Shown here piece by piece: positions 21,553-49,525 of a stretch of 64,000 nucleotides of DNA. Within the stretch, counting starts at the first letter, position 1; each line of letters begins with the position of its first letter. Under the pieces are notes generated by a model. It had not been told where the DNA came from. It saw only the letters and a list, made by a program, of their open reading frames with translations, and made no database searches. The stretch comes from a virus, in IMG/VR virus record IMGVR_UViG_3300011113_000491, positions 32,001-96,000 of that record, one strand, 5' to 3'. The position numbers and the translations under genes were made by a program.

Positions 21553-21627
21553 CACGGGTGACAGGAATCGAACCTGCATCATCCAGTTACGGTAAATCTG
21601 TTTAGAAGACAGAGCCGATACACCCGT
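21553..21627 (-). tRNA. tRNA-Arg(UCU)-like RNA lacking a D-arm
   Basis: Acceptor ACGGGTG/CACCCGT, anticodon arm TCTGT-CTTCTAA-ACAGA, T-arm GCAGG-TTCGATT-CCTGT; only 7 nt between acceptor and anticodon stems. Confidence 0.75.
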
Positions 21628-21676
21628 AAATAGAACATTCGTTCTTTACATATATATTATACTAGGAGTTCGATTC

Positions 21677-22146
21677 ATGTCAATTCATAAATGTAAACTT
21701 TGCAATAAACAAACAAAAAATCCTAAATTTTGTAGTAGTAGTTGTTCTGCAACATTTAATAACAAAATGAATCCAAAAAGAAAACCAGAAGGCAAATGTA
21801 AAACTTGTAATATAGCAATAAATAAAAGTAGAAAATATTGTAAAAAATGTTATGATAAATTTTGTTCTACTGAAGACTATACATTAGAGCAAGCGATTTA
21901 TGATAAACATCATAGATCCTCGGCATATGCACTAGTGCGTTCTCGCGCCAGATCAACAGAAAAAGCAAAAATACAAAAAGATGTGAAATCTGTAATTACT
22001 CAAAGCACATAGAGGTATGTCATATTAAACCAATATCGTCGTTTCCGTTGAATTCTCTATTAAGTGAGATCAACAAAAACGACAATATAATTTGTCTTTG
22101 CCCCAATTGTCATTGGGAATTTGACAATGGTTTAATTAAACTGTAA
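21677..22146 (+). pseudogene. Frameshifted HNH homing endonuclease
   Basis: N-terminal zinc fingers (KFCSSSC) in one frame; C-terminal CEIC...EVCHIKP...LCPNCHWEFD in the -1 frame from about 21970 to TAA 22146. Confidence 0.8.
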
Positions 22147-22450
22147 GTTTCAGATCTGCCGGATTAATCACGCTCTTGGTGGGTGGCACAAAAAGACCAC
22201 CAACAATCACGGTCGTATAGTGATCTTCAAGTTCCTTCTGTGCAGGGACGGTGAAAAGAACATGCTTGCTATCTAGTGTAATACCGCCCTCAATATCGGC
22301 ATATGGTAGCCACTTTGCGAACATGAGCTTGCCTTCAGGGGTTGGCAGAAGAACTGCCGGATCCTTTAGAGTGAGAGTGCCTTCACCCTCAGTAACATTT
22401 GCAATAATTTCTTCACCACTAACAAGACGAGTAATCAAAATATTAGCCAT
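22136..22450 (-). CDS. Conserved small T4-like protein, probable Sm-like fold
   Basis: RLVSGEEIIA...LKDP...W.PY pattern; AGGAG SD. Confidence 0.65.
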   Translation of the reverse strand: MANILITRLVSGEEIIANVTEGEGTLTLKDPAVLLPTPEGKLMFAKWLPYADIEGGITLDSKHVLFTVPAQKELEDHYTTVIVGGLFVPPTKSVINPADLKLTV

Positions 22451-22459
22451 AATATCTCC

Positions 22460-22681
22460 TTAATTTTCACACTGGCAACAACGACCCATAATACGATCCC
22501 AAAGCGAACACTTTGGTGGTTTATCTACCGGCCAACATTGACCGGTTACATCTTCTAAGCAATTTGAGTTTTTGACATCAATTGCACGGGATGATGCTTC
22601 AATGAATTCATCTTCTGTGAATAGAAGATCAATGCATCTACCATCAATCACTTTCTTTACATGAATATATTCATTGCTCAT
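22460..22681 (-). CDS. Hypothetical protein, paralog of 53056-53310
   Basis: AAGGA SD; shared G.C..LL..E.E.....RAID.KN motif. Confidence 0.65.
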   Translation of the reverse strand: MSNEYIHVKKVIDGRCIDLLFTEDEFIEASSRAIDVKNSNCLEDVTGQCWPVDKPPKCSLWDRIMGRCCQCEN

Positions 22682-22698
22682 AAAAACATCCTTTATAA

Positions 22699-23062
22699 TG
22701 GAGGCCGGGGGAGTCGAACCCCCGTGTACCCTATACTTATGTATAAGCCCTACATGATTAGTTTCTTTTCATAAACAATTTCGTAAGGTAAGAAACAAAC
22801 TTACGAATTGCTTTGACTGTTAATTTCGAATCGTTTACCAGTCACTCACGATTCTATCAGATTTGAGAAGTCAGGAATTATCTGAGTCACTTCCTGTACC
22901 CTCTTGACGGTCCTAGTGAATTAAGGATCGACTGTTTCTCAAGCAGCCATTGCAAATGCTCTAGTGTTGGCATTTGTGGTTTGGTTGTTTTTAACGAAGC
23001 CATCAACCATCTTCGTCATGCTCTTCTACATTTGTCTAGAATATCGAATCCGATTGGCCCCC
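22699..23062 (-). ncRNA. ssrA: tmRNA, tag ANTRAFAMAA
   Basis: 5-prime GGGGGCC..GGATTCGA; 3-prime GGGGGTTCGACTCCCCC-GGCCTCCA with G3-U70; tag ORF at 22971-22939 ending AA-TGA; 364 nt. Confidence 0.95.
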
Positions 23063-23665
23063 TTAGTCTTGCTTGTGGATCTTAATCTTACCACCACTCA
23101 TGGTATAATTCAAGTCCCTTTTAATAATTCCGCCTTGTTTTCCTGCTTCAATTTGGGCAATGACTCTAGCATTTCCTTTGCCCTTTGGCACATTGGTTAC
23201 ATTGATTGCACCCTTTGCTACGCCGCCAAAGTTTCCTGAAATTTGTCTAGTGTTGCCCTTTGGTCCTACCAAAAAGAAAGAACCCTGATGACGAACAACA
23301 TGGTGTTCTTCACCGGGTTGACCTTCTTGGGTTCTAACTACTACTGAAGCAACTTGTCCGTCCTTTAGACCCTTGAGAGTTTCTACTTCTCCCTCGTATC
23401 GTTTGGCGTGTTGTTCTTGCTTCTTTGCCGCAACTTTACCAGCAGCAGTTCTTTCTTCTGCCGCTTTTCTATCTGCTGCTCGTTTTCTGGCAGCAGCACC
23501 TTGTCTCATTTTTTCACCAACGGCAATAGACATTCTTTTATTTTCTGCCTCCATGCCCTTTGCGTGCATTTTTGCTTGTCTGAAAGTTTTTGCAGAGCTT
23601 TCTTGTAAAGATCCCCATGCGCCTGACTTGACTAACGATTCTAAAAGTCCTCTGAGTGTTTTCAT
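23063..23665 (-). CDS. Late basic protein with CTS-like start MKTLRGLLE
   Basis: TATAAATA at 23682-23689; GAGG SD; stop codon abuts the tmRNA 5-prime end. Confidence 0.7.
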   Translation of the reverse strand: MKTLRGLLESLVKSGAWGSLQESSAKTFRQAKMHAKGMEAENKRMSIAVGEKMRQGAAARKRAADRKAAEERTAAGKVAAKKQEQHAKRYEGEVETLKGLKDGQVASVVVRTQEGQPGEEHHVVRHQGSFFLVGPKGNTRQISGNFGGVAKGAINVTNVPKGKGNARVIAQIEAGKQGGIIKRDLNYTMSGGKIKIHKQD

Positions 23666-23696
23666 ATAGTACCTCAAAGGATATTTATAATGGAAA

Positions 23697-23815: not shown

Positions 23816-24904
23816 TTACTTTGCTCCCAAAACATCTCTTCCGAGTATACCATTGGTTGTCAGCATATGGAAGGATGTATCTGCCAAAATGTCGAAAGAA
23901 AGTTGCTCGTAAAATCCGTTTGCTCCCCAAGGTGTTCCTTCGTGCCACAAACCTCTCTGCTGTGGTGGTGGAGTTGAGGATCCATTCCACCCTGCCCGGG
24001 CACGACGATCAGCGTCCATGACTTCAGAGACTGCAACGCCACTCACATGACCGTCAAAGAACAGGGCATTTGGTGTACTACTATTTCCTTGATTAAAGAA
24101 CCAAGGAGTGTATCCTCCAGCAAATCCCGGATTGAGTGGGCCACCGTCTTGATTCTGTAGCCAATAGAACTCAATCATGCGAGTCTTTAGTTCAGAATAC
24201 TTTGCTTGCCCCTGTGTGGGACACTTGTATCCTGCGGGAAGAGTGTTAGGGTTTCTGAATCCCTTGTCCGAAAGCACATCTGGATTCCACAATGCCGCAG
24301 GACTCCACACATATGTTGAAAACACTACTTGTCCCGGTTGATTGGGAAGCAAAGTAAATTCGCCCGGACTACCTAGACCTTCCTCTGCTCGTTCCATTGT
24401 CAGTTTGTCCTTTGGAGCAACAAAGGTGCGGTCATAGAAACGACCATTGATGTAACTATTGAACGCCTTCACATTAGGCAATCGGTAATAGCCGAATCCG
24501 CCGTTGGTGAAAGTCCACTCGTTTGGATGGTACACAATCCAATTGTTACACCCTCCCGGTTGTGTAGGCGGACACAAGCCACCGCCCAACCAGTACCCAT
24601 ACAAGTTTCCCTGACTATCCCATCCCAAAATTTGTTGACCGGGACATCCAATAGTATTCAGATACGTTTGGCAACCTCCGTTAGCAAGACCAAAATCGTC
24701 TGCTGCCTGTGTAAACTGACGGTCAGCATAATCAGCCCCGTAAGTAGCATTAGCAGCAGCTAGATTTCGTAGATTACCAAGACTCTGAGTCACTAGAGCA
24801 GCATCTCTTGCTCGTCCCAGTGCAGGAAGCAAAATTGCAATCAGTAGTGAGATAATAGCAACAACAACCAACAACTCAACAATAGTAAATGCCTTCTTTT
24901 TCAT
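23816..24904 (-). CDS. Prepilin-type N-terminal cleavage/methylation protein (DUF1559 / planctomycete pseudopilin family)
   Basis: KKKAFTIVELLVVVAIISLLIAILLPALGRAR..A......NL and C-terminal NALFFDGHV. Confidence 0.9.
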   Translation of the reverse strand: MKKKAFTIVELLVVVAIISLLIAILLPALGRARDAALVTQSLGNLRNLAAANATYGADYADRQFTQAADDFGLANGGCQTYLNTIGCPGQQILGWDSQGNLYGYWLGGGLCPPTQPGGCNNWIVYHPNEWTFTNGGFGYYRLPNVKAFNSYINGRFYDRTFVAPKDKLTMERAEEGLGSPGEFTLLPNQPGQVVFSTYVWSPAALWNPDVLSDKGFRNPNTLPAGYKCPTQGQAKYSELKTRMIEFYWLQNQDGGPLNPGFAGGYTPWFFNQGNSSTPNALFFDGHVSGVAVSEVMDADRRARAGWNGSSTPPPQQRGLWHEGTPWGANGFYEQLSFDILADTSFHMLTTNGILGRDVLGAK

Positions 24905-26260: not shown

Positions 26261-26262
26261 AA

Positions 26263-27158: not shown

Positions 27159-27196
27159 TACCCTGAGAAGAACTTTCTTAAGATTGTTCTTCTCAA

Positions 27197-27271
<75 letters not shown>

Positions 27272-27374: not shown

Positions 27375-27468
27375 ATAATATACACATTGATAGGTTCAAT
27401 GCAGACCAAAATAATAACTTATGTTAAAGATGATACATGTTTAACTCCGTTACTTTCTTACGCTTTAA

Positions 27469-28029
27469 TTATAGCACAGTTGCGGTGTTTGTCAATACCC
27501 ACCACTCTGGAATCTTATTATTCTTCCACTTGGCAAACCGTGCCTTTGCGCCGATATAATACGCACGATATGCCATTACAGCATCTTCGTTCTTGTAAAT
27601 ATCTGGCATTGCTTGAGCAAACGGCGTAAGAGGACCATTTGTGATATTTGCGGGTCTGTTCTTCTGTAACCATACAAGCAAATTGTTTGATGTATGAACC
27701 TTACCATAACGAGATGTGTATTCATTGCACATCTCTACGGCATGAGATGCCAACCAATCATAGTTTGTATTCGTTTCCCTAGTCCAAATTGTACAGGGAT
27801 GATTAATCATTGTTGATTGATATAGAAATCCATCAATGATTGGGTTATGGTGACGATAAGTAGTGTACTTTCTACCAGACTTTGTAAGTTTGACAGAATA
27901 GTATCCATCAAGATAACGGTGTGCTGTTGAGAGTAATTGAGCACTCTCAAGAATCATCTTGACTACATGCTTGTCACATAGTGATTGTGCTGCAACTGTT
28001 GGATTGTTGTCAAGTACAAAGATATTCAT
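27469..28029 (-). CDS. Pyrimidine-dimer DNA glycosylase / endonuclease V-like protein
   Basis: MNIFVLD..P..AA...CDKHVVKMILESAQLLSTAH, NHPC..W.R, FAQAMP..Y, AYR.YY motifs. Confidence 0.85.
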   Translation of the reverse strand: MNIFVLDNNPTVAAQSLCDKHVVKMILESAQLLSTAHRYLDGYYSVKLTKSGRKYTTYRHHNPIIDGFLYQSTMINHPCTIWTRETNTNYDWLASHAVEMCNEYTSRYGKVHTSNNLLVWLQKNRPANITNGPLTPFAQAMPDIYKNEDAVMAYRAYYIGAKARFAKWKNNKIPEWWVLTNTATVL

Positions 28030-37998: not shown

Positions 37999-38021
37999 GT
38001 ATACGATTCTGTGCTGTGTGT

Positions 38022-39635
38022 TCAGTCCTGCTCGTAGTGTTCTGCTATACCTCTTTCTCTCTTTCGAGCCTGTGAAGCTGCGCGCCGGGCAGCAATGTAA
38101 CCGGTTTCTGCCTCGGCCTTCAGACCTCGCTCCCTTCTGCTGACTCCGTATTCCTTGGTATTGGCGGCATCGATCTTGGAGTACATCAGACCTATAGCTT
38201 TAGTCGGCAACCCAAGGCGTTCGGCTGTTGTGTATCTTATGTCAGGAACCCCATCCGGGCCGATAACATCGCGTTCGCGAGGCGTGAGTCCGCCGCGCCC
38301 AAAGCGCCGGCCGCGCCACCACTCATCGCGCTTTACCCTATATTGGTGATCTCTGGTGTCTGGCGTGCCTTGTTTCCTCGCTCTCGCCGCTGCCAAATCT
38401 ACGAGGCTCGCTGGAATCCCTGCGGCGTGACCTTCCCGTGCAGTTCTTTGTGCAAGAGTCCCGGCGACTTTGGATCTGTCTAGTTTCTCATCTAGTCTCT
38501 GCTTGTAGTGGTCTTTCAAGGTCTCCTCTAGTCTACGGCGTGGCTTGAAGAATGGAGGTTTTTTCGCCGCTTCAGCACCAGGCGCGAGCTTCGGCACTTG
38601 TTGGGCCGATCTTGCTACATTCTGTAGTCCTTGATATGCTGACTGGACACTCGCAGAGGCTCGTTGCCCCTCCTCTTGTGCTTTGTGGAGGTCAAACTGA
38701 CCTCCGACGCGGTCGCCCGCGTTGCTCACGGCGAGCGTGGTAGCGAGGCCAAGCGCCGCTACCGCTCTCGGCGATATGTGATGGCCGTGCAGCGTATCGG
38801 TATCGCGTGGATTCAATCCGGTTTTCCGGCCTCGGCCGTCCGTCCGTACATAGGGTACATACTCGTCCGCTTTCTTGTCGATGGCACCACTGATCCGACC
38901 GACCGCTGTTCTTATCTTGTCTGTTATTCTTCCTTCATTCATATGAGGATCTTTTAGTATCTTTGGTTTTGGTTTATGTGCTTCTAGACTCCGTTTGTAC
39001 TTCTCTGAATCCTTTGGTCCGCTATGCACGGTTGGATCAAATGGCGGCTTCTTCGGACCGGTATGTACGGTTGGGTCTGGTTCACCCTTCTCTGGCATCT
39101 TCATCTCATTCATCATTTCTCGTAGTGTGTTCTCTAGACTCATTTCATCTCTCCTTTGTTTATTATTTATACTTCTATCGATCTGTCGTAGTTCTTGCTT
39201 CTTGTCCATTGCTGCTTTGTTGACGACATTTGGTGTCAACAATCCACGACCCGTGAGTGCCATCGTACCAGCCAGAACCCCTGCGGCGATTCGTTCTAGT
39301 GATGCCCTGACTGCATCTGATCTCTTGAGTCGGGCGGACCTTTCTTGTCTGTAGGTTTGAAGCCATTGCGTATCCCGTGGATTGCTGGTCTCTGTTTTCT
39401 TCCACCGACCGCGATGGCCTGGTGTTTCTGATCCATCAGGCATGATGCCTTTGATGATGGGGTTTGTGGTCTCTCCCCTTCTCCCACCAAACCTCTCGAC
39501 CGTCTTATCCCAGGCTCTACCAAAGGCGCGTTTGTTTCTAGCAAACCTCATGTCTAGAATCGACTGTCGTTTTTGTGATCTCCGCAGAGAGTCTAGGATT
39601 CCTTCATTCAGTCTCTGCTTGTAGTGTTCTTTCAT
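38022..39635 (-). CDS. Basic segmented late (internal head) protein inside the early island
   Basis: MKEHYKQRLNE recurs internally as LKDHYKQRLDE; further MNE junctions; variant late promoter CATACATA at 39657-39664; GGAG SD. Confidence 0.7.
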   Translation of the reverse strand: MKEHYKQRLNEGILDSLRRSQKRQSILDMRFARNKRAFGRAWDKTVERFGGRRGETTNPIIKGIMPDGSETPGHRGRWKKTETSNPRDTQWLQTYRQERSARLKRSDAVRASLERIAAGVLAGTMALTGRGLLTPNVVNKAAMDKKQELRQIDRSINNKQRRDEMSLENTLREMMNEMKMPEKGEPDPTVHTGPKKPPFDPTVHSGPKDSEKYKRSLEAHKPKPKILKDPHMNEGRITDKIRTAVGRISGAIDKKADEYVPYVRTDGRGRKTGLNPRDTDTLHGHHISPRAVAALGLATTLAVSNAGDRVGGQFDLHKAQEEGQRASASVQSAYQGLQNVARSAQQVPKLAPGAEAAKKPPFFKPRRRLEETLKDHYKQRLDEKLDRSKVAGTLAQRTAREGHAAGIPASLVDLAAARARKQGTPDTRDHQYRVKRDEWWRGRRFGRGGLTPRERDVIGPDGVPDIRYTTAERLGLPTKAIGLMYSKIDAANTKEYGVSRRERGLKAEAETGYIAARRAASQARKRERGIAEHYEQD

Positions 39636-39708
39636 AGCAACAGCATTCTCCAGTCATATGTATGCCTGCGAACACACCGACGCGCGTGATAGTACAGCGT
39701 GGGTACAA

Positions 39709-39733
39709 AGAAACCCCGCGCATGGCGGGGTTC
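39709..39733 (-). terminator. Terminator of the MoxR operon
   Basis: AACCCCGC/GCGGGGTT stem with U-rich tail on the minus strand. Confidence 0.7.
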
Positions 39734-39765
39734 GTTGCGAGTTGAGATGTCATCCGATGGGCGTC

Positions 39766-40329
39766 CTAGTCCACCCGCAGGACTACGGATGGATCCATCC
39801 GCAGGGTCTGCATGAGCTCCGTGACAAGGAACCCGCCGGGCCCGAATCCCTTCTGTGCCTCATTCACCGAGTCATACCACACTACTGCGTCGTTGATGAT
39901 GAGCCATTGCCAGATGAATCGTCCTAGTTCTAGGGACGGCGTGATCGGTGAGCTAGGCTTCATAATCAGGATCGGTTGTTCTGCCCCATAGCGTACAGGT
40001 ACTCGGTCACACCCAGGCCGTGCCATGTACACGGAGTATGAGCTCGCGGCCGCAGAATCCGTTGGAACCCATGTCACGCATACACAGTTCTCCGGGATCA
40101 GGGAGAACTTATACAAACATGGGCGCGAGTTCCAACGAAACCAAAAGTTCCCGATTGAATCCGAACCATACCCAGGCGGATTGAACATACTGGGGCGATT
40201 GCCGTTCAAACGAACTCCAGTCCAACGACACCCGAGCTTGTCCAGTCCAATCGACGCCAGCATCTTCGTGTCCCCCGCGACAACCGCATCCACGATCATC
40301 TCATCCGAGAACGATTCAAGTGAAGTCAC
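39766..40329 (-). CDS. Hypothetical early protein
   Basis: GTGA coupling; GGAGG SD. Confidence 0.6.
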   Translation of the reverse strand: MTSLESFSDEMIVDAVVAGDTKMLASIGLDKLGCRWTGVRLNGNRPSMFNPPGYGSDSIGNFWFRWNSRPCLYKFSLIPENCVCVTWVPTDSAAASSYSVYMARPGCDRVPVRYGAEQPILIMKPSSPITPSLELGRFIWQWLIINDAVVWYDSVNEAQKGFGPGGFLVTELMQTLRMDPSVVLRVD

Positions 40330-40763
40330 ACCGAGCCTCCCATCGAACGGATGCGGGACTCAAGCACGGCGACCTTGGACTCAAGGTCAGCGATCTTCTT
40401 GGTCATCGCATCCGCACTGGCCGCACAGGCGTTGGCAAACTTGGTTGCCGACTCCAAGTCCATGTTGAGCGAGTCCACACCGGCAAGCAGGGACAGGGCA
40501 TCCTCGCCGTCTTGGAAGTACCCTGCCTTGCGAAGGACATCGATCTCCCCCTTGGCCTTCATCATCTCGTTCAGGTTCTTGAGGTCGAGGCGGATGTCGG
40601 GACGAACGGTCTTGGCATCCACGGCATCGATCTCGTCGTTGAACACCTCGTCCAACGATTCCTCCGTGGGGAACAGGAGGAGGGCGCCTTCGTTGGGGGT
40701 GATGGTTTCGTAGGTCTGTCCGTCAGAGAACACGATGATTGCGATGGTTTCGTTGTTGGTCAT
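40326..40763 (-). CDS. Hypothetical protein with C-terminal coiled coil
   Basis: GC3-biased codons; pyrimidine-rich leader. Confidence 0.7.
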   Translation of the reverse strand: MTNNETIAIIVFSDGQTYETITPNEGALLLFPTEESLDEVFNDEIDAVDAKTVRPDIRLDLKNLNEMMKAKGEIDVLRKAGYFQDGEDALSLLAGVDSLNMDLESATKFANACAASADAMTKKIADLESKVAVLESRIRSMGGSV

Positions 40764-40800
40764 GTTGTACCTTGTGTTGGGGGTGAAAGAGGAAGAAGAA

Positions 40801-42108
40801 TCAGGCGTTCATTGCGTAGTTCGACACACTCACCGAACTCGGCATCGGCGTGGTCGTGGGAGGAGGGCCAGGGATGAAGTGACCGTTACTCGCCACATTG
40901 CTGATGTACTGCGGATCGATGACGATGGTACGAGTCTCAAGCAACTTGGTCGCCTGCGTAGCCCGCTGGGACCACTCGACACGCGCAGTAGCAGAACTGT
41001 ACACAATCGAAGCGTTCAGCAACCGAAGCGCCTTCTTGTAGTCAGAGTCCATCCTCATCTGCGGGCCACCGGTCTCACGCGGCCGGCGGTGTTCGCCTCG
41101 GCGCCGCATAGCAGGAAGCGCACACCCGTAGTTGTTGCGCGACGGGTTGCCGCACAGTTCCACCGAACGAACCTTGACGAGATCTCCGGGAACGCCAGAC
41201 ATCTGAATCTGTGGGATGAACACATGGACGCGAAGGCCGATGTCACCTGCGGCAGTCGCAGATGCGTACCTGCAACGCTCATCGTCCAGCGCCGAGTCCC
41301 CGGCGGTGAAGAAGCTCTGCTGAACACCAGCAAGCTCGCGCGTCACCAACACATGGGCGGTCATGCCCGATGCGTGTGCCAGTTCAGACTGATCGAAGCA
41401 GTAGGTCATTGCACTGGCGATCAGGAAGTCGTAGTTATGCACGAAACTGTCGGGGCACATGACCTTGGACCAGTCCTTCTCGGTGAAGTCGTTGGGCAGG
41501 GCCTCAAGTTCCCTACGGTTGGGATTCAGTTCAAAGTCGATGACCTGGAGGTTGTTGAGACTGCGGATCACACTGCTCATGTCCGCGCGAAGGCCAGGAG
41601 TCCACGACCAACGACCGTGTGCCGGAGCGAGGTTCCATCGTGCGCCGATGGACTTGAAGTAGTTGTTCATTTCCTCGTCGTACCCACAGGTCTTGAGCAC
41701 CAAGGTGGGCATTCCCTCCTGCGGAAACCGATTCAACTCGCTCCAGGCGGTGTAGTCGTTGACGACGATGCCGCTCACGAGGCCGTCATTGTACAGAGAC
41801 ATCTGCACATCCTTGGCGAGCTTGTCCCACTTGGAACGGAGGATGACGAAGGTTCCGAGTTCTTCCATGAACGATGCACCATGAGCCTTCACGCGCTCAC
41901 GCAGCTTCTTTGACTCGCGGGTGCGGAAGGGGACATGGATCGTGACGGCGACCGGACGCTCGTAGAACTTCCTTTCGGAGATGGGCTTGTCCGAGTCGCT
42001 GATGGCGAGGTTGAGTGCTTCCAGGCCTGCAACGCTTCCATGAACTGAAGCGGCAACGCCGAGGGTTTGGTAGACTGACGAGAGTTCGATTTGATTGAAG
42101 ATGACCAT
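40801..42108 (-). CDS. Hypothetical early protein (435 aa)
   Basis: GC3 bias on the minus strand; operon context. Confidence 0.7.
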   Translation of the reverse strand: MVIFNQIELSSVYQTLGVAASVHGSVAGLEALNLAISDSDKPISERKFYERPVAVTIHVPFRTRESKKLRERVKAHGASFMEELGTFVILRSKWDKLAKDVQMSLYNDGLVSGIVVNDYTAWSELNRFPQEGMPTLVLKTCGYDEEMNNYFKSIGARWNLAPAHGRWSWTPGLRADMSSVIRSLNNLQVIDFELNPNRRELEALPNDFTEKDWSKVMCPDSFVHNYDFLIASAMTYCFDQSELAHASGMTAHVLVTRELAGVQQSFFTAGDSALDDERCRYASATAAGDIGLRVHVFIPQIQMSGVPGDLVKVRSVELCGNPSRNNYGCALPAMRRRGEHRRPRETGGPQMRMDSDYKKALRLLNASIVYSSATARVEWSQRATQATKLLETRTIVIDPQYISNVASNGHFIPGPPPTTTPMPSSVSVSNYAMNA

Positions 42109-42198
42109 GAGATGATTCCTGAAAGAGTGCGGACGATTGAAACGGGAAAGGTGAGTAACGGCGTTAGCCGATACCCACCGAGTAGGAGGTGTGATGGA

Positions 42199-42666
42199 TC
42201 AGAGGCCGGACAGGGCGCCGGGGCCGGACAACTTGGCAAGGCGGCGGAGGAAGTCGGCCTTACGCTTGCCCTTGAGCAGCACTGCCACGCTGACATAGTT
42301 GCTGCCCTGCTGACCCTGCTCCGTGTAATCCACGGCAGCGTCACCGCGCGTAGCGAAGATGCCGCGGAAGGTGGGCATCTTGTTCATCTGCTTGCGGAGT
42401 TCGCGGATGAAACGCTCGTCCGTGTAGATGAGCCCGTGACGCTGAATGTCCCAGTCCTTCTTGGTGAAGTACACGCGGAAGGCGACATACAGATCGTCGT
42501 TGTGGTAGTCGGCAAGGAGCTCCCCATCGTTCGGGAAGATGTAGTCCAGTTCGATGCGACGGATGGTGATGGTGCGGATCGACTCCGACCACAACCCCTT
42601 GCCGTCGGTCGTGCAGACGATGGGGGTCTTGAGAGGGAACGAGATACGAGTAGTAGTGTTGGTCAT
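42199..42666 (-). CDS. Conserved phage hypothetical protein
   Basis: TDGKGLWS, VYF...W....HGLIYTD..F...L, YTEQG.QG..YVS pattern. Confidence 0.7.
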   Translation of the reverse strand: MTNTTTRISFPLKTPIVCTTDGKGLWSESIRTITIRRIELDYIFPNDGELLADYHNDDLYVAFRVYFTKKDWDIQRHGLIYTDERFIRELRKQMNKMPTFRGIFATRGDAAVDYTEQGQQGSNYVSVAVLLKGKRKADFLRRLAKLSGPGALSGL

Positions 42667-42714
42667 GTTACTGATGATCCTTGTGTTGAGTGTGCGAGAG
42701 AAAGAAACGAACGA

Positions 42715-43923
42715 TCAGAACGGCGCCTTGGTGCGATCAACCGGGGCGGCCGCCGGAGCCGGAGTGGGTTCCGGTTCCACGATCTTGGACCACGCGGAGT
42801 AGAACGATTCCTGCGTGGACTGATCGAAGCGGGCGAGTGAGAGGCGGATCGCCTTGTCCTTGTCACCGAACACCGAGAACGCCTTGACGATGTTGAGCAG
42901 ACGACGGGTCGAAACCACCTCATCGCAGGCACCTTCCTTGAAGGTGGCGCGGAGCATATCCGCCCACTTGCACAGGTAACCCGCGAAGTCCTCATCGACC
43001 TTGCCGTACTTCTTCATGGCACGGACGAGGATGCGCTTCTCGGTCGCCACAGGGGCGTAGTCCTGCTCGTAGGTGTAGTCGAAGCGGTCGAGCATTGCCT
43101 CGTTCATCACGCGAGTACCGACGAAGCGGCCGTCATCGCTACCCTTGCCCTTGGTGTTGGCGGTGGCGAAGATGGTGAACCCGGTAGCGGGCGAAACCCA
43201 TTGGTTGATCTTCTTGAGGAACACACCCTTACCCTCAAGCACCGACTGGAGGCACATGAGCTTGTCGCTGCCGAGGTCGATCTCGTCAAGGAGCAGCACG
43301 GCACCACGCTTCATCGCGGACACGACAGCACCATCGTGCCACACCATGTCGCCGTTGACGAGGCGGAAACCACCGAACAGATCATCCTCATCGGTCTCCG
43401 CAACGATGTTGACACGGAAGCACTCGCGTCCGAGCTTCGCGCAGACCTGTTCGATCATCGTTGTCTTGCCGTTGCCGGACAGACCCGTGACGAACACAGG
43501 CGAGAAGATGTTCGCCTTGATGATCGTGGAGATGTCATCGAAGTGACCCCACGGGACATACTCGGCGTTCGTGGGCGGGATCAGAGTGGCGCGATCACCA
43601 CCGGTCATGCCCAGGACCTCGGCGTTGAACACCGCAGGGGCGGCCGCGGCGATCTTGACACTCGGCGCCGGAGCGGCAACCGGAGCAACCGGAGCAGCAG
43701 CAGGCGTCGCCTTGGTCGTCGTCGCCGGAGCGTTGACGATCTCGGGGACATGGAACAGGCCACGACCGGCGTGGCGAGCGGGATCCTTGACGATCCACGC
43801 GGGCGGGAAGTTGTTGCCCACCAGCTGTGCAGCCTGGAGGAGCTGCTGGCGCGTCACGGGAGTGGCGCGCGTAATGGTGGCGAGGGCGGTGAAGTACGCG
43901 GTCTGCTTGGTAGTATTAGGCAT
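42715..43923 (-). CDS. MoxR/CbbQ-family AAA+ ATPase (CobS-like phage family), leaderless start MPNTTKQ
   Basis: Walker A GLSGNGKT, Walker B LLLDEID, ATANTKGKGSDDGRFVGT, LDRF, STRRL. Confidence 0.92.
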   Translation of the reverse strand: MPNTTKQTAYFTALATITRATPVTRQQLLQAAQLVGNNFPPAWIVKDPARHAGRGLFHVPEIVNAPATTTKATPAAAPVAPVAAPAPSVKIAAAAPAVFNAEVLGMTGGDRATLIPPTNAEYVPWGHFDDISTIIKANIFSPVFVTGLSGNGKTTMIEQVCAKLGRECFRVNIVAETDEDDLFGGFRLVNGDMVWHDGAVVSAMKRGAVLLLDEIDLGSDKLMCLQSVLEGKGVFLKKINQWVSPATGFTIFATANTKGKGSDDGRFVGTRVMNEAMLDRFDYTYEQDYAPVATEKRILVRAMKKYGKVDEDFAGYLCKWADMLRATFKEGACDEVVSTRRLLNIVKAFSVFGDKDKAIRLSLARFDQSTQESFYSAWSKIVEPEPTPAPAAAPVDRTKAPF

Positions 43924-43930
43924 ACCGTCC

Positions 43931-43959
43931 AGGCTACCAGCTTCTGGTCCACGGCACAA
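43931..43959 (-). promoter_or_regulatory. Early promoter of the MoxR operon
   Basis: TTGTGC-17-TAGCCT (TGG extension), 7 nt to ATG. Confidence 0.7.
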
Positions 43960-43980
43960 GCCAGGAAATGGAAATATTTC

Positions 43981-44185
43981 TAAGTCCTTGTCCCATAAGG
44001 ACTTACATAAACCCTTGTAAATAAAGGACTTATGGGGGGTATTATCGGACGCCGTTCCCTACTGCCGGGGGCGGGGGCCCATATTATCGGACATCCACCA
44101 GAGAGGAGGGGGCGTCCGATAAGCGTGATAGTATCCAGTTATGGGACTTTCGGTCGTAAGTCCTTATGCCACAACGATTTACGAT
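43981..44185. promoter_or_regulatory. Cluster of palindromic operator-like sites TAAGTCCTT-N7-AAGGACTTA and TTATCGGAC repeats
   Basis: Perfect palindrome at 43981-44005; degenerate copies at about 44007-44033, 44155-44183 and 37073-37101. Confidence 0.7.
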
Positions 44186-44203
44186 AAATCTAGGGTTTCC
44201 CTA

Positions 44204-44232
44204 TTGCGCGGGGACCCCCGATATGGTAGCCT
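44204..44232 (+). promoter_or_regulatory. Early promoter of the vWA gene
   Basis: TTGCGC-17-TAGCCT (TGG extension), 7 nt to ATG; mirrors the MoxR promoter. Confidence 0.7.
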
Positions 44233-44239
44233 GTCCGGT

Positions 44240-46693
44240 ATGCTTACTGCCAGTACTACGCCCGTCGTTCAAACCATTCGCCATACTTCAAAGGATCTGC
44301 TTGCGCGTATCCTCGCCACGGAGAATCTGACCGTGCGCCACGATCCCTCCGCGCAGACCGCCAGCATGGATGTCGTCAATCGCGTTCTCACGCTCCCCGT
44401 GTGGACTGACATGACCAACGAGGTCTACGATATGCTGATCGGTCACGAGGTCGGCCATGCCCTGTTCACTCCGCACACGGAAGCAGACAAGCGCGTGTCT
44501 GGCCCGTGGTGTGCCGCTGCCGAGGAGATCGCTGGTATCAACCAAGAAACTCCGAGGTGCCAGATGCTCCTCAACATCGTGGAGGACGCCCGCATCGAAC
44601 GCATGATGAAGCAGAAGTTCCCCGGTATGCGCCGCGACTTCTTCAAGGCCTACGAGTACATGAAGGCCAATGACTTCTTCGGCATCAACGCCAAGACCGC
44701 GGATGAACTGAACGCTCTGCGTTTCGCTGACCGCATCAACCTGCACTACAAGCTCGGCACCATCGGTGATACGGGTATCTACTTCAGCGACACCGAGCGC
44801 GAGTACCTCAAGCGCATCGATGCCGCCAAGACCTTCGATGACATCAAGGACATCGTGCGCGACCTGTGGAACACCAAGGCGTACAACGAACCGGGCCAGA
44901 AGCAGGATGCCGGCGACGGTACTGGTGACGGCGACATCGGTGACATGGACAACGACGGCAACGACGCTGGCCAGCAGCAGCAGGGCAAGTCCAACAGCGG
45001 ACAGACCAACAGCGGCCAGTCGCCCAGTAAGGGCAACGATTCGCAACCGGGTCAGGATCAGTCCAATGGTGCATCGCAGCAGCAGGGCGACCAGAAGTCC
45101 AACCAGTCCGGTGCCGGTCGTCACGGCGACCACAGTTCTGTTGCGGGTTCGACGCAGCAGGCGATGCAGGATCACCTGTCGTCGCGTACCAAGACCAGCG
45201 GAAGCTACCAGTACATGACTCTGCCCGAGCCTGATCTGTCCAAGATCATCATGGGTTGGCGCGACATCGCCAAGGAGTTCGTGCAGTTCGACTCCAAGGT
45301 TTCGGGTGCCTACGATATGCCCGCGATCCGTCGCGTGGCGACCGAGATGTCGAGCAAGTTCATGTCGGACAGCAAGCCCATCGTGTCGCTCATGGTGAAG
45401 GAGTTTGAGATGCGTAAGGCCGCCGATGCGTCGGCGCGTGTTCGTGTCGCCACCACCGGCGTCCTCGACGGCGTGCGTGTCTGTAACTACCGGATCACCG
45501 ACGACATCTTCCGTCGTCACGCGACCGTGCAGGCTGGCAAGAACCACGGGTTCGTCATCTTCATCGACTGGTCGGGTTCCATGTCGCCCGTGATCGGGCC
45601 CGTGTTCAACCAGGCGCTTCAGGTGATGATGTTCTGCCGTCGCGTCGGTATCCCGTTCGATGTGTATGCGTTCAGCAGCGCGACTGCTCCGGGCGTCGAG
45701 CGTCGTGACCAGTGGAAGACTACTGATGGCAACAACATCATGTTCAACAGTTTCATGCTCATGCACCTGTTCTCATCGTCCATGTCGTCGGCAGCGTTCA
45801 ACAACCAGGTCGCCCTCATGTGGAGCGTTGCCCATCAGCGCGGTCTTTCGACCGAGTGTGAGCGTCGCGGTATGCGTATCGGTTGGAGTGCGCCGATTCC
45901 TGACTTCATGCACATGGGTTCGACTCCGCTTGACGAGTCCATCGCCTGTGCAATGAAGATCGTGCCGGAGTTCCGCACCCGCAATCGTGTGCAGATCGTC
46001 AACACGGTGTTCCTCACCGACGGCGCTACTACGAGTCCGTGGGGTGGTGGCAACGCATACGATTCAATCTGCGGAGACAAGGCGACGAGCAACATGGAGT
46101 TCCTGACCGTCGGTCACAAGAACTACGCCGCTGCACCGTCATCGACTGCCGCAATGCTGCGCGCGCTGCGTGACCAGTGCGATACTCGCGTGATCGGGTT
46201 CTTCCTTGTCGAAGCACCCAACAAGGTGTATGCCGAAGGCAAGTTCTCGCCTGCCAAGCCCAATCGCTACAGCGGCGACATCGACTCGTCGTACTCGTAT
46301 GTCGATGCCACGGGCCGCGAGTGTCCGTCCAAGGTTGGTTACTTGACGCAGGGTCTCATTCCACTCGACCGTCCCGCGATCAAGTCGCATTGGAACTCCC
46401 GTCCGATTCTGTCTGCGGATGACTGCAAGCGGGCCAATGAAGAGGTCGCCCGGTTCGCAGAGGAGGACTACTGCATCGCCGTGCCGACTTCGTTCGTCGG
46501 TGCCGGGTACGACGAGATGTACATGATCCGTGCCGGTCTCGATGTTGACAACACGGATCACCTCGGTGCGCTCAACGCCAACACCGCCACGGTGGCACAG
46601 GTGAAGCGCGCCCTGCTCAAGTCCGCCCGTGGCAAGCTCAAGTCCCGTAAGATGTTCACCCGTTTCGTTTCCCTCATCTCGACCCAGGCCTAA
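44240..46693 (+). CDS. Metallopeptidase-like plus vWA domain protein (CobT-like MoxR partner), start MLTAST
   Basis: HEVGHALFT, NIVEDARIE, low-complexity linker, MIDAS DWSGS...TPL...LTDG. Confidence 0.9.
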   Translation: MLTASTTPVVQTIRHTSKDLLARILATENLTVRHDPSAQTASMDVVNRVLTLPVWTDMTNEVYDMLIGHEVGHALFTPHTEADKRVSGPWCAAAEEIAGINQETPRCQMLLNIVEDARIERMMKQKFPGMRRDFFKAYEYMKANDFFGINAKTADELNALRFADRINLHYKLGTIGDTGIYFSDTEREYLKRIDAAKTFDDIKDIVRDLWNTKAYNEPGQKQDAGDGTGDGDIGDMDNDGNDAGQQQQGKSNSGQTNSGQSPSKGNDSQPGQDQSNGASQQQGDQKSNQSGAGRHGDHSSVAGSTQQAMQDHLSSRTKTSGSYQYMTLPEPDLSKIIMGWRDIAKEFVQFDSKVSGAYDMPAIRRVATEMSSKFMSDSKPIVSLMVKEFEMRKAADASARVRVATTGVLDGVRVCNYRITDDIFRRHATVQAGKNHGFVIFIDWSGSMSPVIGPVFNQALQVMMFCRRVGIPFDVYAFSSATAPGVERRDQWKTTDGNNIMFNSFMLMHLFSSSMSSAAFNNQVALMWSVAHQRGLSTECERRGMRIGWSAPIPDFMHMGSTPLDESIACAMKIVPEFRTRNRVQIVNTVFLTDGATTSPWGGGNAYDSICGDKATSNMEFLTVGHKNYAAAPSSTAAMLRALRDQCDTRVIGFFLVEAPNKVYAEGKFSPAKPNRYSGDIDSSYSYVDATGRECPSKVGYLTQGLIPLDRPAIKSHWNSRPILSADDCKRANEEVARFAEEDYCIAVPTSFVGAGYDEMYMIRAGLDVDNTDHLGALNANTATVAQVKRALLKSARGKLKSRKMFTRFVSLISTQA

Positions 46694-46707
46694 TAGGAGA
46701 ACCTACA

Positions 46708-47580
46708 ATGACTACCAAGACATGGCCATCATCATTGGACGCACACATCGAAATGAACTTTGAGTTCAGGTACAACCACGGCGCAGGACTCGCGTTCCAT
46801 GATGGACTCAATCCTGCGTTGGCGGACATCATCACTACAAGAGAGATGTTCCACCTCGCACAAGATTGGGGATGCCAGAAGTACGCGCAGATCAAGAAGT
46901 ACATCAAGGGATATGACTCGTTCAGTCTCCTCATGCACCCGGACTCGTCTGTGAAGATGTTCGTCAAGTCCCTCACCGTCAGCTACACCACGATGAACAC
47001 CGAGCGGATTCTGTTCTTCTATGACTCAAAGGGAGTCAACGACGGCGTTGCAATGCTCTGGCTTCCTGGTCACAACAGTCCGGCGCCCATGAGTCCTGCT
47101 CGTTTCTCGACCCACGCCGAAACGGTCAACGGACTTGGAGACAGAGGGTACTACCGCCAATACGAAGAAGGATTCAAGCAGAATCCGATTGCGATGGCGA
47201 AGCACATGGTCTGCGAGATCATTCGGATCAAGCAGGTTCACCGATGCGCGCCGGGTAGTATGGCAGGCAGCAACGAACAGGACTTCCGTCTGATGCCGCT
47301 CGAGCTCTTCGTCGGTAGCAAAGAACTGATCCGAGATGTGTGGGATTCTCTCGTTGGATACTCCCCGCGGCCGGTCGAGATGAAGGAAGAAGGATCAGCA
47401 ATCTGCACGAACGGTCTGAAGTTCGGTGACTACATGGAAGAATGCGGTGACATGATGATTACGCACTACAACAACCACATTCTTGAATCGTTCGCAGACA
47501 ACCTCCGCATCAACGGCATCAATATGTTCCCGATTGTTAGCGGTCATTCAAACAAGGGTATCGTGACGCACCCGGTTTGA
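46708..47580 (+). CDS. Hypothetical early protein
   Basis: AGGAG SD; followed by a terminator. Confidence 0.7.
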   Translation: MTTKTWPSSLDAHIEMNFEFRYNHGAGLAFHDGLNPALADIITTREMFHLAQDWGCQKYAQIKKYIKGYDSFSLLMHPDSSVKMFVKSLTVSYTTMNTERILFFYDSKGVNDGVAMLWLPGHNSPAPMSPARFSTHAETVNGLGDRGYYRQYEEGFKQNPIAMAKHMVCEIIRIKQVHRCAPGSMAGSNEQDFRLMPLELFVGSKELIRDVWDSLVGYSPRPVEMKEEGSAICTNGLKFGDYMEECGDMMITHYNNHILESFADNLRINGINMFPIVSGHSNKGIVTHPV

Positions 47581-47622
47581 ACTAACACGAACCCAGTCAG
47601 ACGCCCAAGGTGGGCAGTAGCA

Positions 47623-47658
47623 TGGGGCGGATCGTTCTACGATCCGTCCCTTTTTTTA
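47623..47658 (+). terminator. Rho-independent terminator
   Basis: GGGCGGATCG-TTCTA-CGATCCGTCC plus T run. Confidence 0.85.
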
Positions 47659-47858
47659 TCGTGATAGTATCGCGTGGTATTCGCCGCATGACCACGGGAA
47701 AGATCGGCAGGATATGGATATATGCCATCGTGGCAGGATATGAAACACCGATGGCATAGTGGTCATACTGCCATATGCCAATGCAATCTGGCATTATTTC
47801 TTTCAGAAATATGTGAAATATGCTTGTGAAATGTTTCACGATCCGGTAGACTACACGC

Positions 47859-48131
47859 ATGGCAAGACCTACAGACCCGTTCGATCCCGCGTCTATGGAC
47901 GCATACATCAACCCGATTCTCAATCGCGCGGCAATCGATGTCGTCTATTTGAACGACATCGCATCCAAAGCGGAGCTCATGCTTGAGTTGTTCATACAGC
48001 ACGGCCTGCTCGACATTGAAGTGACCGGCAACGGTGACTTCGCCTACCGTGTGTCCGACATTTGGAAGAAAGAACTCGCCGCTGAAGGACACGATCTCTC
48101 TCGCATTCCCCTCTCGCACCTCTCTTACTGA
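47859..48131 (+). CDS. Hypothetical early protein, leaderless
   Basis: Promoter TTGTGA-17-TAGACT at 47824-47852, 6 nt to ATG. Confidence 0.7.
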   Translation: MARPTDPFDPASMDAYINPILNRAAIDVVYLNDIASKAELMLELFIQHGLLDIEVTGNGDFAYRVSDIWKKELAAEGHDLSRIPLSHLSY

Positions 48132-48141
48132 AATACGAAAT

Positions 48142-48510
48142 ATGCCATTCGACCCCTACAACAACGAACACACCGACAGCAGCCTCTACTTCGATGACTT
48201 CGGAGACACCGACGACCGCATGGAAATCCTGCGCGAGCTCGATGAGGACTACGACCCCATGAGCGACCCCGATCCCTTCGATGACGATGAAGAATGGTCA
48301 GAGGAGGACGACGACCGCGGCGCCGTTCGTGAGGACGAGGATGAGAACTACGACGACCTGGATGACGACGACCTTGAGGATGACGACCACGAGGAACTGC
48401 CGCATGAGGACGACGACGACTTTGATGACTGCTTCAACTGCGACGGCAGCATCTCCGATAAGGGATTCGCCCTTCTCGGTGACATGGATCGCAGGGGTCT
48501 CTTTGTCTGA
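48142..48510 (+). CDS. Extremely acidic protein (start MPFDPY)
   Basis: Long D/E tracts with spaced aromatic residues. Confidence 0.7.
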   Translation: MPFDPYNNEHTDSSLYFDDFGDTDDRMEILRELDEDYDPMSDPDPFDDDEEWSEEDDDRGAVREDEDENYDDLDDDDLEDDDHEELPHEDDDDFDDCFNCDGSISDKGFALLGDMDRRGLFV

Positions 48511-48520
48511 AAGGACACCA

Positions 48521-49006
48521 ATGACCACCACTACTGTTTCTGTTCCCCAAGTTCATCCGCCTGCCTATTCGTACTGCACGGCCAAGGTGATTCCCCCCAC
48601 AACCAAATCCATCACGACCGGCATGATGATGTTCGACAAGTCGTATATGCTTTCTGTGCAGAGCAAGTTCATCCATATGTGGATGCGCGATATGCCAGCA
48701 AAGTACCCGCAGCACAAGACGCCGCATATGCCCTCAAAGGCGTGTGAGTTCGCGCAGGCCTGCTATATGCTTGCGACTGGATATGGCGAACACGCCATGC
48801 CGGCATTCAATGGGTACAGTCGTGACTTCCTGATGATGGTTTCCAATCAGTTGGGATATGCGTATATCCCGGCATGGATCGTCAAGGACAAGTCGCGCCG
48901 CCTTGATCGTTCGATGTACATGGTTCCCGAAGTTTCGATTTATGCCGTCGCATATCTCTCCACCCTCCCGACTCCAACCACCAACGAGGTTACCACCAAT
49001 GCGTGA
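48521..49006 (+). CDS. Stand-alone homolog of the MoxR N-terminal domain
   Basis: AAGGA SD; PAWIVKDKSRRLDRSMYMVPEV versus PAWIVKDPARHAGRGLFHVPEI in the ATPase. Confidence 0.7.
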   Translation: MTTTTVSVPQVHPPAYSYCTAKVIPPTTKSITTGMMMFDKSYMLSVQSKFIHMWMRDMPAKYPQHKTPHMPSKACEFAQACYMLATGYGEHAMPAFNGYSRDFLMMVSNQLGYAYIPAWIVKDKSRRLDRSMYMVPEVSIYAVAYLSTLPTPTTNEVTTNA

Positions 49007-49307
49007 GAACACCATCACCGTGATTTTTGACGACGCCGACCGCCGACAGATGGAGTGGCAACCCAATCTGACAGAGCATGAGTTTCCCCTGTGGTGGCAG
49101 AGTCTCACCGATACCGACTTCATTCGGTTCTACTTCAACCCGTTCGCCCTGCCAGGCACGGTCAAGGTGATGAAGAATCGGCAGGAAGTGAAGCCGTATT
49201 ACTACTGCTACTTCGATGAGATGCAGAACTCATACATCAGCGTGGGCCAGAGGACGATCCCGTATCGATACGGCGATCTGAACTGGAAGAGGCACTGGCC
49301 CGCGTAA
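48999..49307 (+). CDS. Hypothetical protein (start MRENT)
   Basis: GAGG SD; overlapping coupling. Confidence 0.6.
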   Translation: MRENTITVIFDDADRRQMEWQPNLTEHEFPLWWQSLTDTDFIRFYFNPFALPGTVKVMKNRQEVKPYYYCYFDEMQNSYISVGQRTIPYRYGDLNWKRHWPA

Positions 49308-49334
49308 CACAATCTCCGTGCCATGGGACGCAAC

Positions 49335-49371
49335 GACCCGACAGGTTTCATCGCCTGTCGGGTCTTTTTTT
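49335..49371 (+). terminator. Rho-independent terminator ending the early island
   Basis: GACCCGACAGG/CCTGTCGGGTC plus T run. Confidence 0.88.
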
Positions 49372-49525
49372 GACGCGTGATAGTATCAGTATAGAAATAT
49401 GCTAGTTTATGAAATATGCGATTTTAGGAAATATGCAAATCATAATCCAACAAATCTAGCAACAAGGATTCCAACGCAGAACGAAATAAGCGAAATGAGA
49501 ATCTTGTGAATCTTCAAGTCGTTCT

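Follow-up and report, generated by a model that had tools for sequence, protein, structure and literature searches.

A conserved GC-rich block with host-like codon usage in an AT-rich T4-like phage of a probable planctomycete host

An island of high guanine-plus-cytosine (GC) content lies in the genome of an uncultured lake phage (G000), which is represented by a virus record of 123,465 bp with 38.8% GC (IMG/VR record IMGVR_UViG_3300011113_000491). The window analyzed here is the 64,000-nt stretch covering bases 32,001-96,000 of that record, and coordinates are window positions unless marked as contig positions. G000 is a T4-like myophage. It possesses a T4-type replication and recombination core, as judged from matches to PHROG families for gp32 (phrog_224, 1e-113), a gp41-type helicase (phrog_19, 6e-126), UvsX (phrog_97, 3e-82), and a gp43 polymerase in two pieces (phrog_262), together with a baseplate wedge protein (phrog_219, 4e-88), further baseplate and tail matches (phrog_438 and phrog_232), and a ribonucleotide reductase. 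The island (34740..49385, both strands) spans 14.6 kb at 56% GC and uses host-like codons, while the rest of the genome uses codons that the probable host avoids.

Measured in 1-kb steps, GC lies at 25-39% between 1 and 17 kb, climbs to 40-46% at 23-29 kb and to 51-62% at 35-49 kb, and falls back to 35-44% past 50 kb. Both edges of the island are sharp. On the left, at about 34,690-34,740, GC rises from 34% to 57% within roughly 100 nt, and on the right the GC-rich DNA stops at 49,385, directly past a terminator-like hairpin. The genes of the island form two divergent arms, one on the minus strand up to 43959 and the other on the plus strand from 44141. Outside the island, the structural (late-type) baseplate and tail genes (1..17137) are AT-rich, with a GC content at third codon positions (GC3) of 0.12-0.35, and the gene for the single-strand DNA-binding protein gp32 (17208..18119, minus strand) has a GC of 0.47 and a GC3 of 0.52. 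These values agree with a first-pass annotation of the window, which had sampled 60-nt lines of about 68% GC inside the island and 18% GC in a late gene (0.68 at 43561-43620 and 0.18 at 15721-15780) and had described gp32 as intermediate.

The block comprises cobS, a cobT-like partner, and about a dozen genes of no assigned function. The cobS-like gene (42715..43959, minus strand, GC3 0.79), named the MoxR gene in the first pass, encodes a MoxR-type AAA+ ATPase that matches Pfam AAA_5 (3e-19; 69.7 bits, cut-off 22), CbbQ_C (21.1 bits, cut-off 20.6), and phrog_249 (2e-100), and its product is 57-60% identical to cyanophage CobS. The cobT-like gene (44141..46693, plus strand, GC3 0.77) encodes 850 amino acids and matches phrog_459 (3e-152), a family labelled 'peptidase'. 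The protein has no Pfam domain, and its role as a VWA partner is judged from alignment motifs only, namely H102, E103, and H106 and D476, S478, and S480, which are invariant in 16 aligned sequences and which we take to be HExxH and DxSxS motifs, the latter of the metal-ion-dependent adhesion site (MIDAS) type. Among 19 open reading frames (ORFs) of the island scanned against Pfam, cobS is the sole exception to 18 with no match. The PHROG scan of 10 island ORFs gave strong matches only for cobS and cobT and a weak one for 40326-40763 (phrog_1857, E 0.0012). No match was obtained for the 537-, 435-, and 850-amino acid block proteins with phmmer against PDB sequences, nor for the block with megablast against 50,697 phage records.

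Similar blocks exist in other phages. G001, found by a search with the cobT-like protein, is a 156.7-kb viral contig of 36% GC with a block of about 13 kb at 52-58% GC, and G002 is a 65-kb fragment of 43.5% GC with a 12-kb block at 52-57% GC. In both, the block surrounds cobS and cobT, and a cluster of tRNA genes and a transfer-messenger RNA (tmRNA) gene lies 7-10 kb off, as in the window. Gene order is shared by G000 and G001 throughout, with 83 reciprocal-best orthologs at a median of 54% amino acid identity. The cobS orthologs share 69% identity with G000 in G001 (GC3 0.86) and 51% in G002 (GC3 0.77), the cobT GC3 is 0.77, 0.82, and 0.75 in G000, G001, and G002, respectively, and the gp32 ortholog of G001 has a GC3 of 0.41. 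The GC step is also present in the metagenome contigs L187 and L189, where homologs of genes on the right flank (50850-51518 and 52692-53075 or 55288-55764) come after it. The same architecture and junction recur in G001, G002, L187, and L189 at 33-69% protein identity. More distantly, the GC of cobT follows its relatedness, being 53-61% in 10/10 loci at 38% identity or above and 40-44% in 11/11 loci at 35% or below. The GC range in 2-kb steps is at most 0.15 in all but four (L001, 0.26; L004, 0.19; L075, 0.18; L002, 0.16) of 58 viral loci, each 8 kb or longer, that were retrieved with more distant cobT relatives or, for L001, with the protein of the window itself; it is 0.33 in G000.

The island is not a product of chimeric assembly, a risk that the first pass had raised. 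A Logan contig of another study spans 33307-35159 at the left edge, a contig from another sample of what may be the source study spans 49224-50575 at the right edge, the GC step is repeated in the four other phage contigs, and the stretch or parts of it were found in 20 runs from 12 studies, none of them listed as an RNA run. Direct repeats bracketing the block were sought and not found, and neither an integrase nor a transposase turned up among the 19 Pfam-scanned or 10 PHROG-scanned island ORFs. Host DNA inside the phage was also considered and rejected: in the two metagenome-assembled genomes (MAGs) searched, G003 and G004, block DNA matches only four patches of 78-134 nt at 71-73% identity, and two block proteins found no match there. 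The patches fall in an acidic Asp/Glu-rich repeat at 48280-48417 (two 36-nt copies, 72% alike), and probably reflect low-complexity similarity.

As a separate observation on genome ends, the neighbouring window genes 18498-19760 and 19762-20823 have their orthologs at opposite ends of G001 (300-1562 and 155978-156457). It follows that G001 may be a complete circularly permuted genome, though it is listed as linear and 70% complete.

Codon usage was compared among ORFs of at least 300 nt, which were taken with a greedy picker instead of a gene finder; since the island set probably includes some antisense shadow ORFs, the GC3 figures given for it are conservative. GC3 is 0.67 in the island, 0.19 in the structural genes, and 0.30 both in the tRNA region and on the replication side, and the island differs from each other class with Mann-Whitney p values of 2e-6 to 2e-8. 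Gene by gene, the ranges of the island (0.50-0.80) and the structural genes (0.12-0.35) are nearly disjoint, and individually checked island genes reach 0.73-0.84. Synonymous codon use differs between the gene classes in codon shares and relative synonymous codon usage (RSCU) as well as in GC3. AAA accounts for 0.17 of Lys codons in the island versus 0.78 in the structural genes, AGA for 0.11 versus 0.83 of Arg codons, ATA for 0.11 versus 0.49 of Ile codons, and TTA for 0.00 versus 0.47 of Leu codons; the island uses AAG (0.83), ATC (0.72), and CGC plus CGT (0.53) instead. The first-pass observation that AGA, ATA, and AAA abound in the AT-rich late genes and are scarce in the island is therefore borne out by the codon shares of the structural genes. 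GC3 medians are also higher on the replication side than in the structural genes, both in G000 (0.30 vs. 0.19, p=2e-6) and in G001 (0.23 vs. 0.19, p=0.0025). The shift in the block extends beyond third positions to GC1 (0.59 vs. 0.41), GC2, the share of glycine, alanine, arginine, and proline (GARP; 0.29 vs. 0.21), and DNA outside ORFs (0.52 vs. 0.37).

The probable host was approached through a host-derived pseudopilin-like gene with an N-terminal methylation (N_methyl) motif (23816..24904, minus strand), which lies outside the block. Its product is 82-84% identical to the first of three tandem chromosomal paralogs on five MAG contigs of 65-68% GC, and 65-69% identical to the second and third. 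The titles of these five near-full-length matches are Singulisphaera sp., Planctomycetaceae bacterium (a 400-kb contig), Planctomycetota bacterium, 'uncultured bacterium', and Bacteroidia (a 6-kb contig). Because the phage pseudopilin is 83% identical to chromosomal genes there, the host is probably a planctomycete of about 66-68% GC. Clusters of language-model look-alikes of the pseudopilin, in which Planctomycetota is the commonest phylum, serve as a lead only. The first-pass expectation of a high-GC host is thereby supported, with three of the five contigs labelled Planctomycetota or members of that phylum; its more specific choice of Phycisphaerae is not, as the labels are Planctomycetaceae, Singulisphaera, and Planctomycetota. 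The pseudopilin is not among the reciprocal-best pairs of G000 and G001, and looks like a planctomycete surface-protein gene that moved into the phage and that G001 lacks.

Host codon usage was sampled from 39 ORFs (10,730 codons) at 15 loci of MAG G003. In this sample, AAA and AGA each make up 1% and ATA and TTA each 0% of the codons for their amino acids, and GC3 is 0.86 versus 0.19 in the phage structural genes, a gap that is exaggerated because the host ORFs were picked for a GC3 of at least 0.75. Overall GC is about 68% in the host and 39% in the phage. RSCU correlates with that of the host sample at +0.90 for the island, in G000 and G001 alike, and at -0.67 to -0.70 for all other classes. 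This correlation is in large part a GC3 effect. However, when GC3 is factored out by comparing C/(C+G) in eight four-codon families, the block still matches the host sample with r=0.99 in G000 and 0.88 in G001; the backbone classes give r=-0.52, 0.62, and 0.05. All these values come from eight points only, and the backbone estimates are noisy. Host-like codon usage of the island, as claimed in the first pass, is supported by both comparisons.

Two tRNA genes lie in the window, both on the minus strand. tRNA-Lys(UUU), which reads AAA, is at 27196..27270 (ARAGORN; Rfam, 75.3 bits), and an aberrant tRNA-Arg(UCU)-like gene, a candidate reader of AGA, is at 21553..21627 (Rfam, 36.9 bits, cut-off 29) with its D arm unmatched. 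ARAGORN calls the latter only with the -ps option, and its default run finds just Lys-UUU in the window. The first-pass annotation had counted three tRNAs, one of them reading AUA, but no AUA-reading tRNA was found in the window by five approaches, namely ARAGORN by default or with -ps, Rfam at gathering cut-offs or at E<=5 (20.5-28.5 kb), and BLAST with the Ile-UAU of two relatives; laxer ARAGORN settings returned 47 and 256 calls, which are noise. G001 and G002 do encode Ile-UAU. The remainder of the G000 contig encodes Asn-GUU, Gly-UCC, and Leu-UAA. These three genes, with small ORFs, fill the approximately 3 kb between the two pieces of the split gp43-type DNA polymerase (a C-terminal ORF of 371 and an N-terminal ORF of 489 amino acids; contig 111,943-117,549, or 79943-85549 on the window scale, past the window end), and G001 is arranged alike.

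A phage tmRNA, already noted in the first pass, is encoded at 22696..23062 on the minus strand (Rfam, 119.4 bits; ARAGORN) with the tag ANTRAFAMAA, and a tmRNA stands beside the tRNAs in G000, G001, and G002. The tags end in MAA in G000, IAA in G001, and RAA in G002. A candidate host tag, ANTQYALAA, was read by eye from a frame translation of a G003 locus (C14:40442-40792), as ARAGORN does not recognize the host tmRNA; on this weak reading, phage and host tags share their start, and the host tag ends in LAA.

The tRNA sets of these phages correspond to the codons that set them apart from the host. When 45 anticodon classes are ranked by primary-codon use in the structural genes minus that in the host sample, the 11 tRNAs of G001 fill 10 of the top 12 ranks, and none of 100,000 random draws of 11 classes reached the observed sum. 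With its nine U34 tRNAs (uridine at anticodon position 34) drawn among the 14 U34 classes, P is 0.0004. The five tRNAs of G000 rank 1, 2, 5, 7, and 10 (P=6e-5, and 0.04 among U34 classes). For G000, codons with a cognate phage tRNA reach 216 per 1000 in structural genes and 179 in replication genes, against 67 for the block and 29 for the host sample; the corresponding G001 values are 414, 397, 132, and 59. The first-pass claim that the tRNAs read exactly the late codons thus stands in part: the phage tRNAs match the codons most over-used relative to the host, but no AUA reader was found in the window and replication genes use the tRNA codons too. Since replication genes do so almost like structural genes (179 vs. 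216 per 1000), the split lies between the block and everything else. The division into early and late genes proposed at first is not borne out, as the replication genes, whose T4 counterparts are early or middle, likewise run against the host in RSCU (r=-0.67).

Placement of promoters sets the tRNA genes apart as well. The only two sites in the 123-kb contig that match the sigma-70 consensus at 12/12 positions are those ahead of the window's two tRNA genes, both on the minus strand: TTGACA-16-TATAAT with a TG upstream (27468..27495), 198 nt upstream of tRNA-Lys, and TTGACA-16-TATAAT (21656..21683), 29 nt upstream of the tRNA-Arg-like gene. In G001, 8/11 tRNAs have a site of at least 11/12 in the 400 nt that precede them, and in G002 a 12/12 site lies 13 nt ahead of tRNA-Ile. 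This conserved placement suggests that the unmodified host polymerase transcribes the tRNAs.

The composition of the block is maintained rather than left over from an ancestor. At four-fold sites of conserved residues, G000 and G001 are identical at 0.47 in the block versus 0.34 expected, and at 0.43 versus 0.37 elsewhere; silent sites are nearly saturated, about equally inside the block and outside it. Orthologs nonetheless have correlated GC3 in the two genomes (r=0.84 for all pairs; r=0.74 for the 75 pairs outside the island). The pseudopilin serves as an internal control, with a GC3 of 0.39 versus 0.87-0.89 in the host genes at 83% amino acid identity; third-base changes at its conserved residues run 147-158 from strong to weak and 6-11 from weak to strong. 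This drop from 0.89 to 0.39 argues that the high GC of the block is actively maintained. Away from the block, GC-ending codons are lost more quickly than amino acids are replaced, while inside they last through 31-67% amino acid divergence, since the pseudopilin decayed and cobS and cobT did not. Strain differences over 32.0-51.5 kb are balanced, with 110 weak-to-strong versus 101 strong-to-weak changes in X4 and 107 versus 97 in X10, which fits an equilibrium of any cause. Four ortholog pairs lie in the block in one genome only, and GC3 is higher in that genome in all four (0.43 and 0.55, 0.26 and 0.50, and 0.38 and 0.64; for the fourth, 0.57 in the block of G000 vs. 0.48 outside that of G001).

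The two arms of the block are closed at its outer edges by intrinsic-terminator-like hairpins, with a 15-pair stem and a T run for the minus arm at the left edge (34839..34874, minus strand) and a 12-pair stem and TTTTTTT for the plus arm at the right edge (49335..49364, plus strand). Within the island, a sigma-70-like promoter, TTGACA-17-TAGAAT, matches the consensus at 11/12 positions (37039..37067, minus strand), and the blocks of the relatives contain one 12/12 and one 11/12 site in G001 and one 11/12 site in G002; the number of sigma-70-like sites in the block is not above that of shuffled sequence (11 vs. 9.5 +/- 2.8). The 10-nt motif CGTGATAGTA occurs in six plus-strand copies, at 37124, 37205, 39685, 44124, 47660, and 49376, all between ORFs and inside the block, with none elsewhere in the 123-kb contig, and it is absent from G001 and G002. 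It resembles an extended -10 box (TG-n-TAGTAT), and the copy at 44124 ends 8 nt before the start codon of the cobT-like gene, which suggests that this mRNA could be leaderless. Three of the six copies lie between minus-strand genes, in the 'wrong' orientation. On the plus arm, a hairpin with a T run is followed directly by the extended -10-like CGTGATAGTAT at 47624-47669 and again at 49335-49385. We tentatively liken these units to the promoter-early/stem-loop (PeSL) cassettes of the hyperplastic early regions of T4-type phages, which they resemble in having a hairpin and T run and then CGTGATAGTAT, and from which they differ in that three of the six motif copies lie between minus-strand genes and the motif is not in G001 or G002. 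Around the divergent control region of cobS and the cobT-like gene, two nested inverted repeats enclose both gene starts (43981-44006 with 44156-44181, 85%; 43917-43939 with 44224-44246, 87%).

Evidence on timing is indirect and comes from homologs and from box-like sites. In a report on cyanophages, cobS is an early marker gene of P-SSM2 and gp32 a middle marker of P-HM2 (Liu et al. 2019, PMC6628666). GC3 in G000 falls in the order cobS (0.79), gp32 (0.52), and structural genes (0.19), matching these early and middle roles. The candidate late box TATAAATA is found within 80 nt upstream of 0/18 island ORFs versus 15/107 others, a contrast that is not significant (Fisher p=0.125). There are 21 copies in all, 15 of them within 80 nt upstream of ORFs, as raw counts. 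These 15 ORFs include two AT-rich genes that abut the left edge of the block (33788..34603, minus strand), in both of which TATAAATA precedes the start codon by 5-6 nt and has a GGATCCCCCAGTCCCC repeat on its upstream side. The ...TTTGGGGACTGGGGGATCCTAA repeat has three copies at 34249-34679, at the left block edge, and is found nowhere else in the contig; on the minus strand, its copies closely precede the TATAAATA boxes of the two genes alongside. The GGGGACTGGGGGATCC repeat was considered as a genome-wide signal and rejected, with 3 copies at the left junction only. Early expression of the block would be expected from the cyanophage homolog and the promoter-like sites.

On balance, we consider it somewhat probable that the codon split orders protein synthesis, with the block, written in the codons of the host, translated first and the AT-rich rest after phage tRNAs have accumulated, which would amount to the translational timer hypothesized in the first pass. 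This reading starts from the split, its conservation, the match to the host sample, and the placement of promoters, and from these we infer expression of the block first and a limiting supply of tRNA. The tRNAs of the host would suffice to translate the block once the DNA enters the cell, and at the same time host RNA polymerase would produce the phage tRNAs, from their perfect sigma-70 promoters, and the tmRNA. The AT-rich replication and structural genes would be translated efficiently only after the phage tRNAs build up, and the tmRNA could plausibly recycle ribosomes stalled at host-rare codons. A stronger form, which is possible though rather doubtful, would make this relay obligatory: only the block would be translatable at a useful rate in a 68% GC planctomycete, all other phage proteins would await the phage tRNAs, a tmRNA with an altered tag ending would recycle stalled ribosomes, and selection would hold two opposite codon equilibria within a single genome.

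Several observations weigh against codon-ordered synthesis. The aberrant tRNA-Arg(UCU) of G000 may be non-functional, and the timing is deduced from homology and sequence signals, with a late-box contrast that falls short of significance. The host call rests on one gene and on a presumed direction of transfer, and the labels of the five matching contigs include Bacteroidia once and 'uncultured bacterium' once. The C/(C+G) match of r=0.99 is not specific to this host, because C-versus-G preferences are alike in many high-GC bacteria, and the choice of host ORFs inflates the host bias. Furthermore, the 2.7-Mb MAG G003 contains 44 distinct single-copy tRNAs, including Lys-UUU, Arg-UCU, Leu-UAA, Gly-UCC, and three CAU genes. 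Since the host MAG thus has tRNAs for AAA, AGA, UUA, and GGA, late codons are readable without phage tRNAs and only the rate is in question. Position, and not gene identity alone, predicts composition, given that orthologs situated in the block of only one genome have the higher GC3 in that genome. The whole block resembles a 56% GC genome, and regional composition pressure would look identical.

Such regional pressure is the main rival, although we regard it as unlikely. It could take the form of GC-biased gene conversion at a recombination hot spot or of module exchange with high-GC phages, and the host match would be a by-product of GC. It would account for the shift of GC1, GC2, amino acid usage, and non-ORF DNA together, for the higher GC of genes that lie in the block in one genome only, and for balanced strain differences, which fit an equilibrium of any cause. 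However, the edge falls at the same gene junction in four contigs, the codon match stays when GC3 is factored out, and the tRNA set and promoters point to translation as the selected trait. Repeated recent replacement is hard to square with a silent divergence that is alike in the two compartments, and no mechanism is known by which a T4-type genome replicating by recombination would restrict such a bias to a single block of 13-15 kb. Acquisition is harder still to reconcile with the data. A chimera joining a low-GC phage to a high-GC one, or a recent island from the host or a mobile element, would fit the sharp edges, the atypical composition, and the block-private motif, yet it is highly improbable given that the edges are bridged, the architecture is shared with G001, G002, L187, and L189, bracketing repeats and mobility genes were not found in the searches made, and cobS and cobT are typical phage genes in a block with scant similarity to the host MAGs.

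Selection may instead act on the DNA or RNA of the region transcribed first, where host-like GC would evade AT-targeted host functions before phage counter-measures are in place. Xenogeneic silencing proteins, spurious promoters, Rho-dependent termination of poorly translated AT-rich RNA, and AT-directed nucleases are such functions. The raised GC of non-ORF block DNA agrees with this, as do the block's own sigma-70-like promoters, strong intrinsic terminators at both outer edges, and private 10-nt motif. However, the tRNA genes and several small neighbours have consensus host-type promoters and sit in 40-46% GC DNA, so that transcription by the host polymerase needs no GC-rich DNA here, and the C-versus-G codon match is left unexplained. 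This explanation is therefore considered quite unlikely, and codon-ordered synthesis is preferred.

The effects of phage tRNAs and of early and late codon usage are usually weak, statistical, and debated. Here, the two regimes are nearly disjoint, physically separate, and held across deep divergence, and the clade makes it testable whether codon choice orders protein synthesis and whether phage tRNAs are a rate-limiting switch. If the relay is true, protein timing would be set by tRNA supply as well as by promoters, and the GC3 of the block would track host GC and be usable as a signal for host prediction. In practice, such genomes would be broken up or thrown out by chimera filters and by binning on composition, and whole-genome GC or codon usage would not predict the host, to which the block by itself does point. 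The analysis also ties an abundant group of freshwater T4-like phages to Planctomycetota, a phylum for which few phages are known; one report mentions predicted phages of Planctomycetes (PMC6802176).

That codon usage may vary with expression time is an old principle, and classic T4 work treated codon usage in this way. What appears new is the discrete conserved block of host codons in an anti-host genome, with its size, sharpness, and conservation, which was not found in the literature searched, from which many subscription journals are absent. In the parts of the reports available, phage early and late genes differ in codon use (PMC5683454) and phage tRNAs favour late genes (PMC12482277). 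The reading proposed for G000 shares with these the idea of time-ordered gene classes that use different synonymous codons and of phage tRNAs that serve the later ones. G000 differs in that these are statistical differences with known timing, as far as the available text describes them, whereas here two nearly non-overlapping regimes are seen, one of them confined to a physical block at near-saturated divergence, with a predicted timing. Low-GC T4-like cyanomyoviruses are described as adding their own tRNAs for high-GC hosts (Limor-Waisberg et al. 2011, PMC3152331). They resemble G000 as AT-rich T4-type myoviruses of a GC-richer host whose mostly U34 tRNAs serve A-ending codons frequent in the phage but scarce in its host; in the available part of that report, however, low GC is genome-wide, whereas in G000 one conserved block matches the host (+0.90 vs. 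about -0.7) and the GC gap is far wider. The AAA+ protein of the block is 57-60% identical to cyanophage CobS, and its gene may be early as in P-SSM2. The cobS/cobT region exists without a large GC step in more distant phages (cobT identity of 35% or below) and in most of the 58 viral loci. Acquired genomic islands share the sharp compositional break of the block. In contrast to them, the block has the same junction in divergent relatives and shows no decay toward genome composition, while a truly host-derived gene elsewhere in G000 has strongly decayed.

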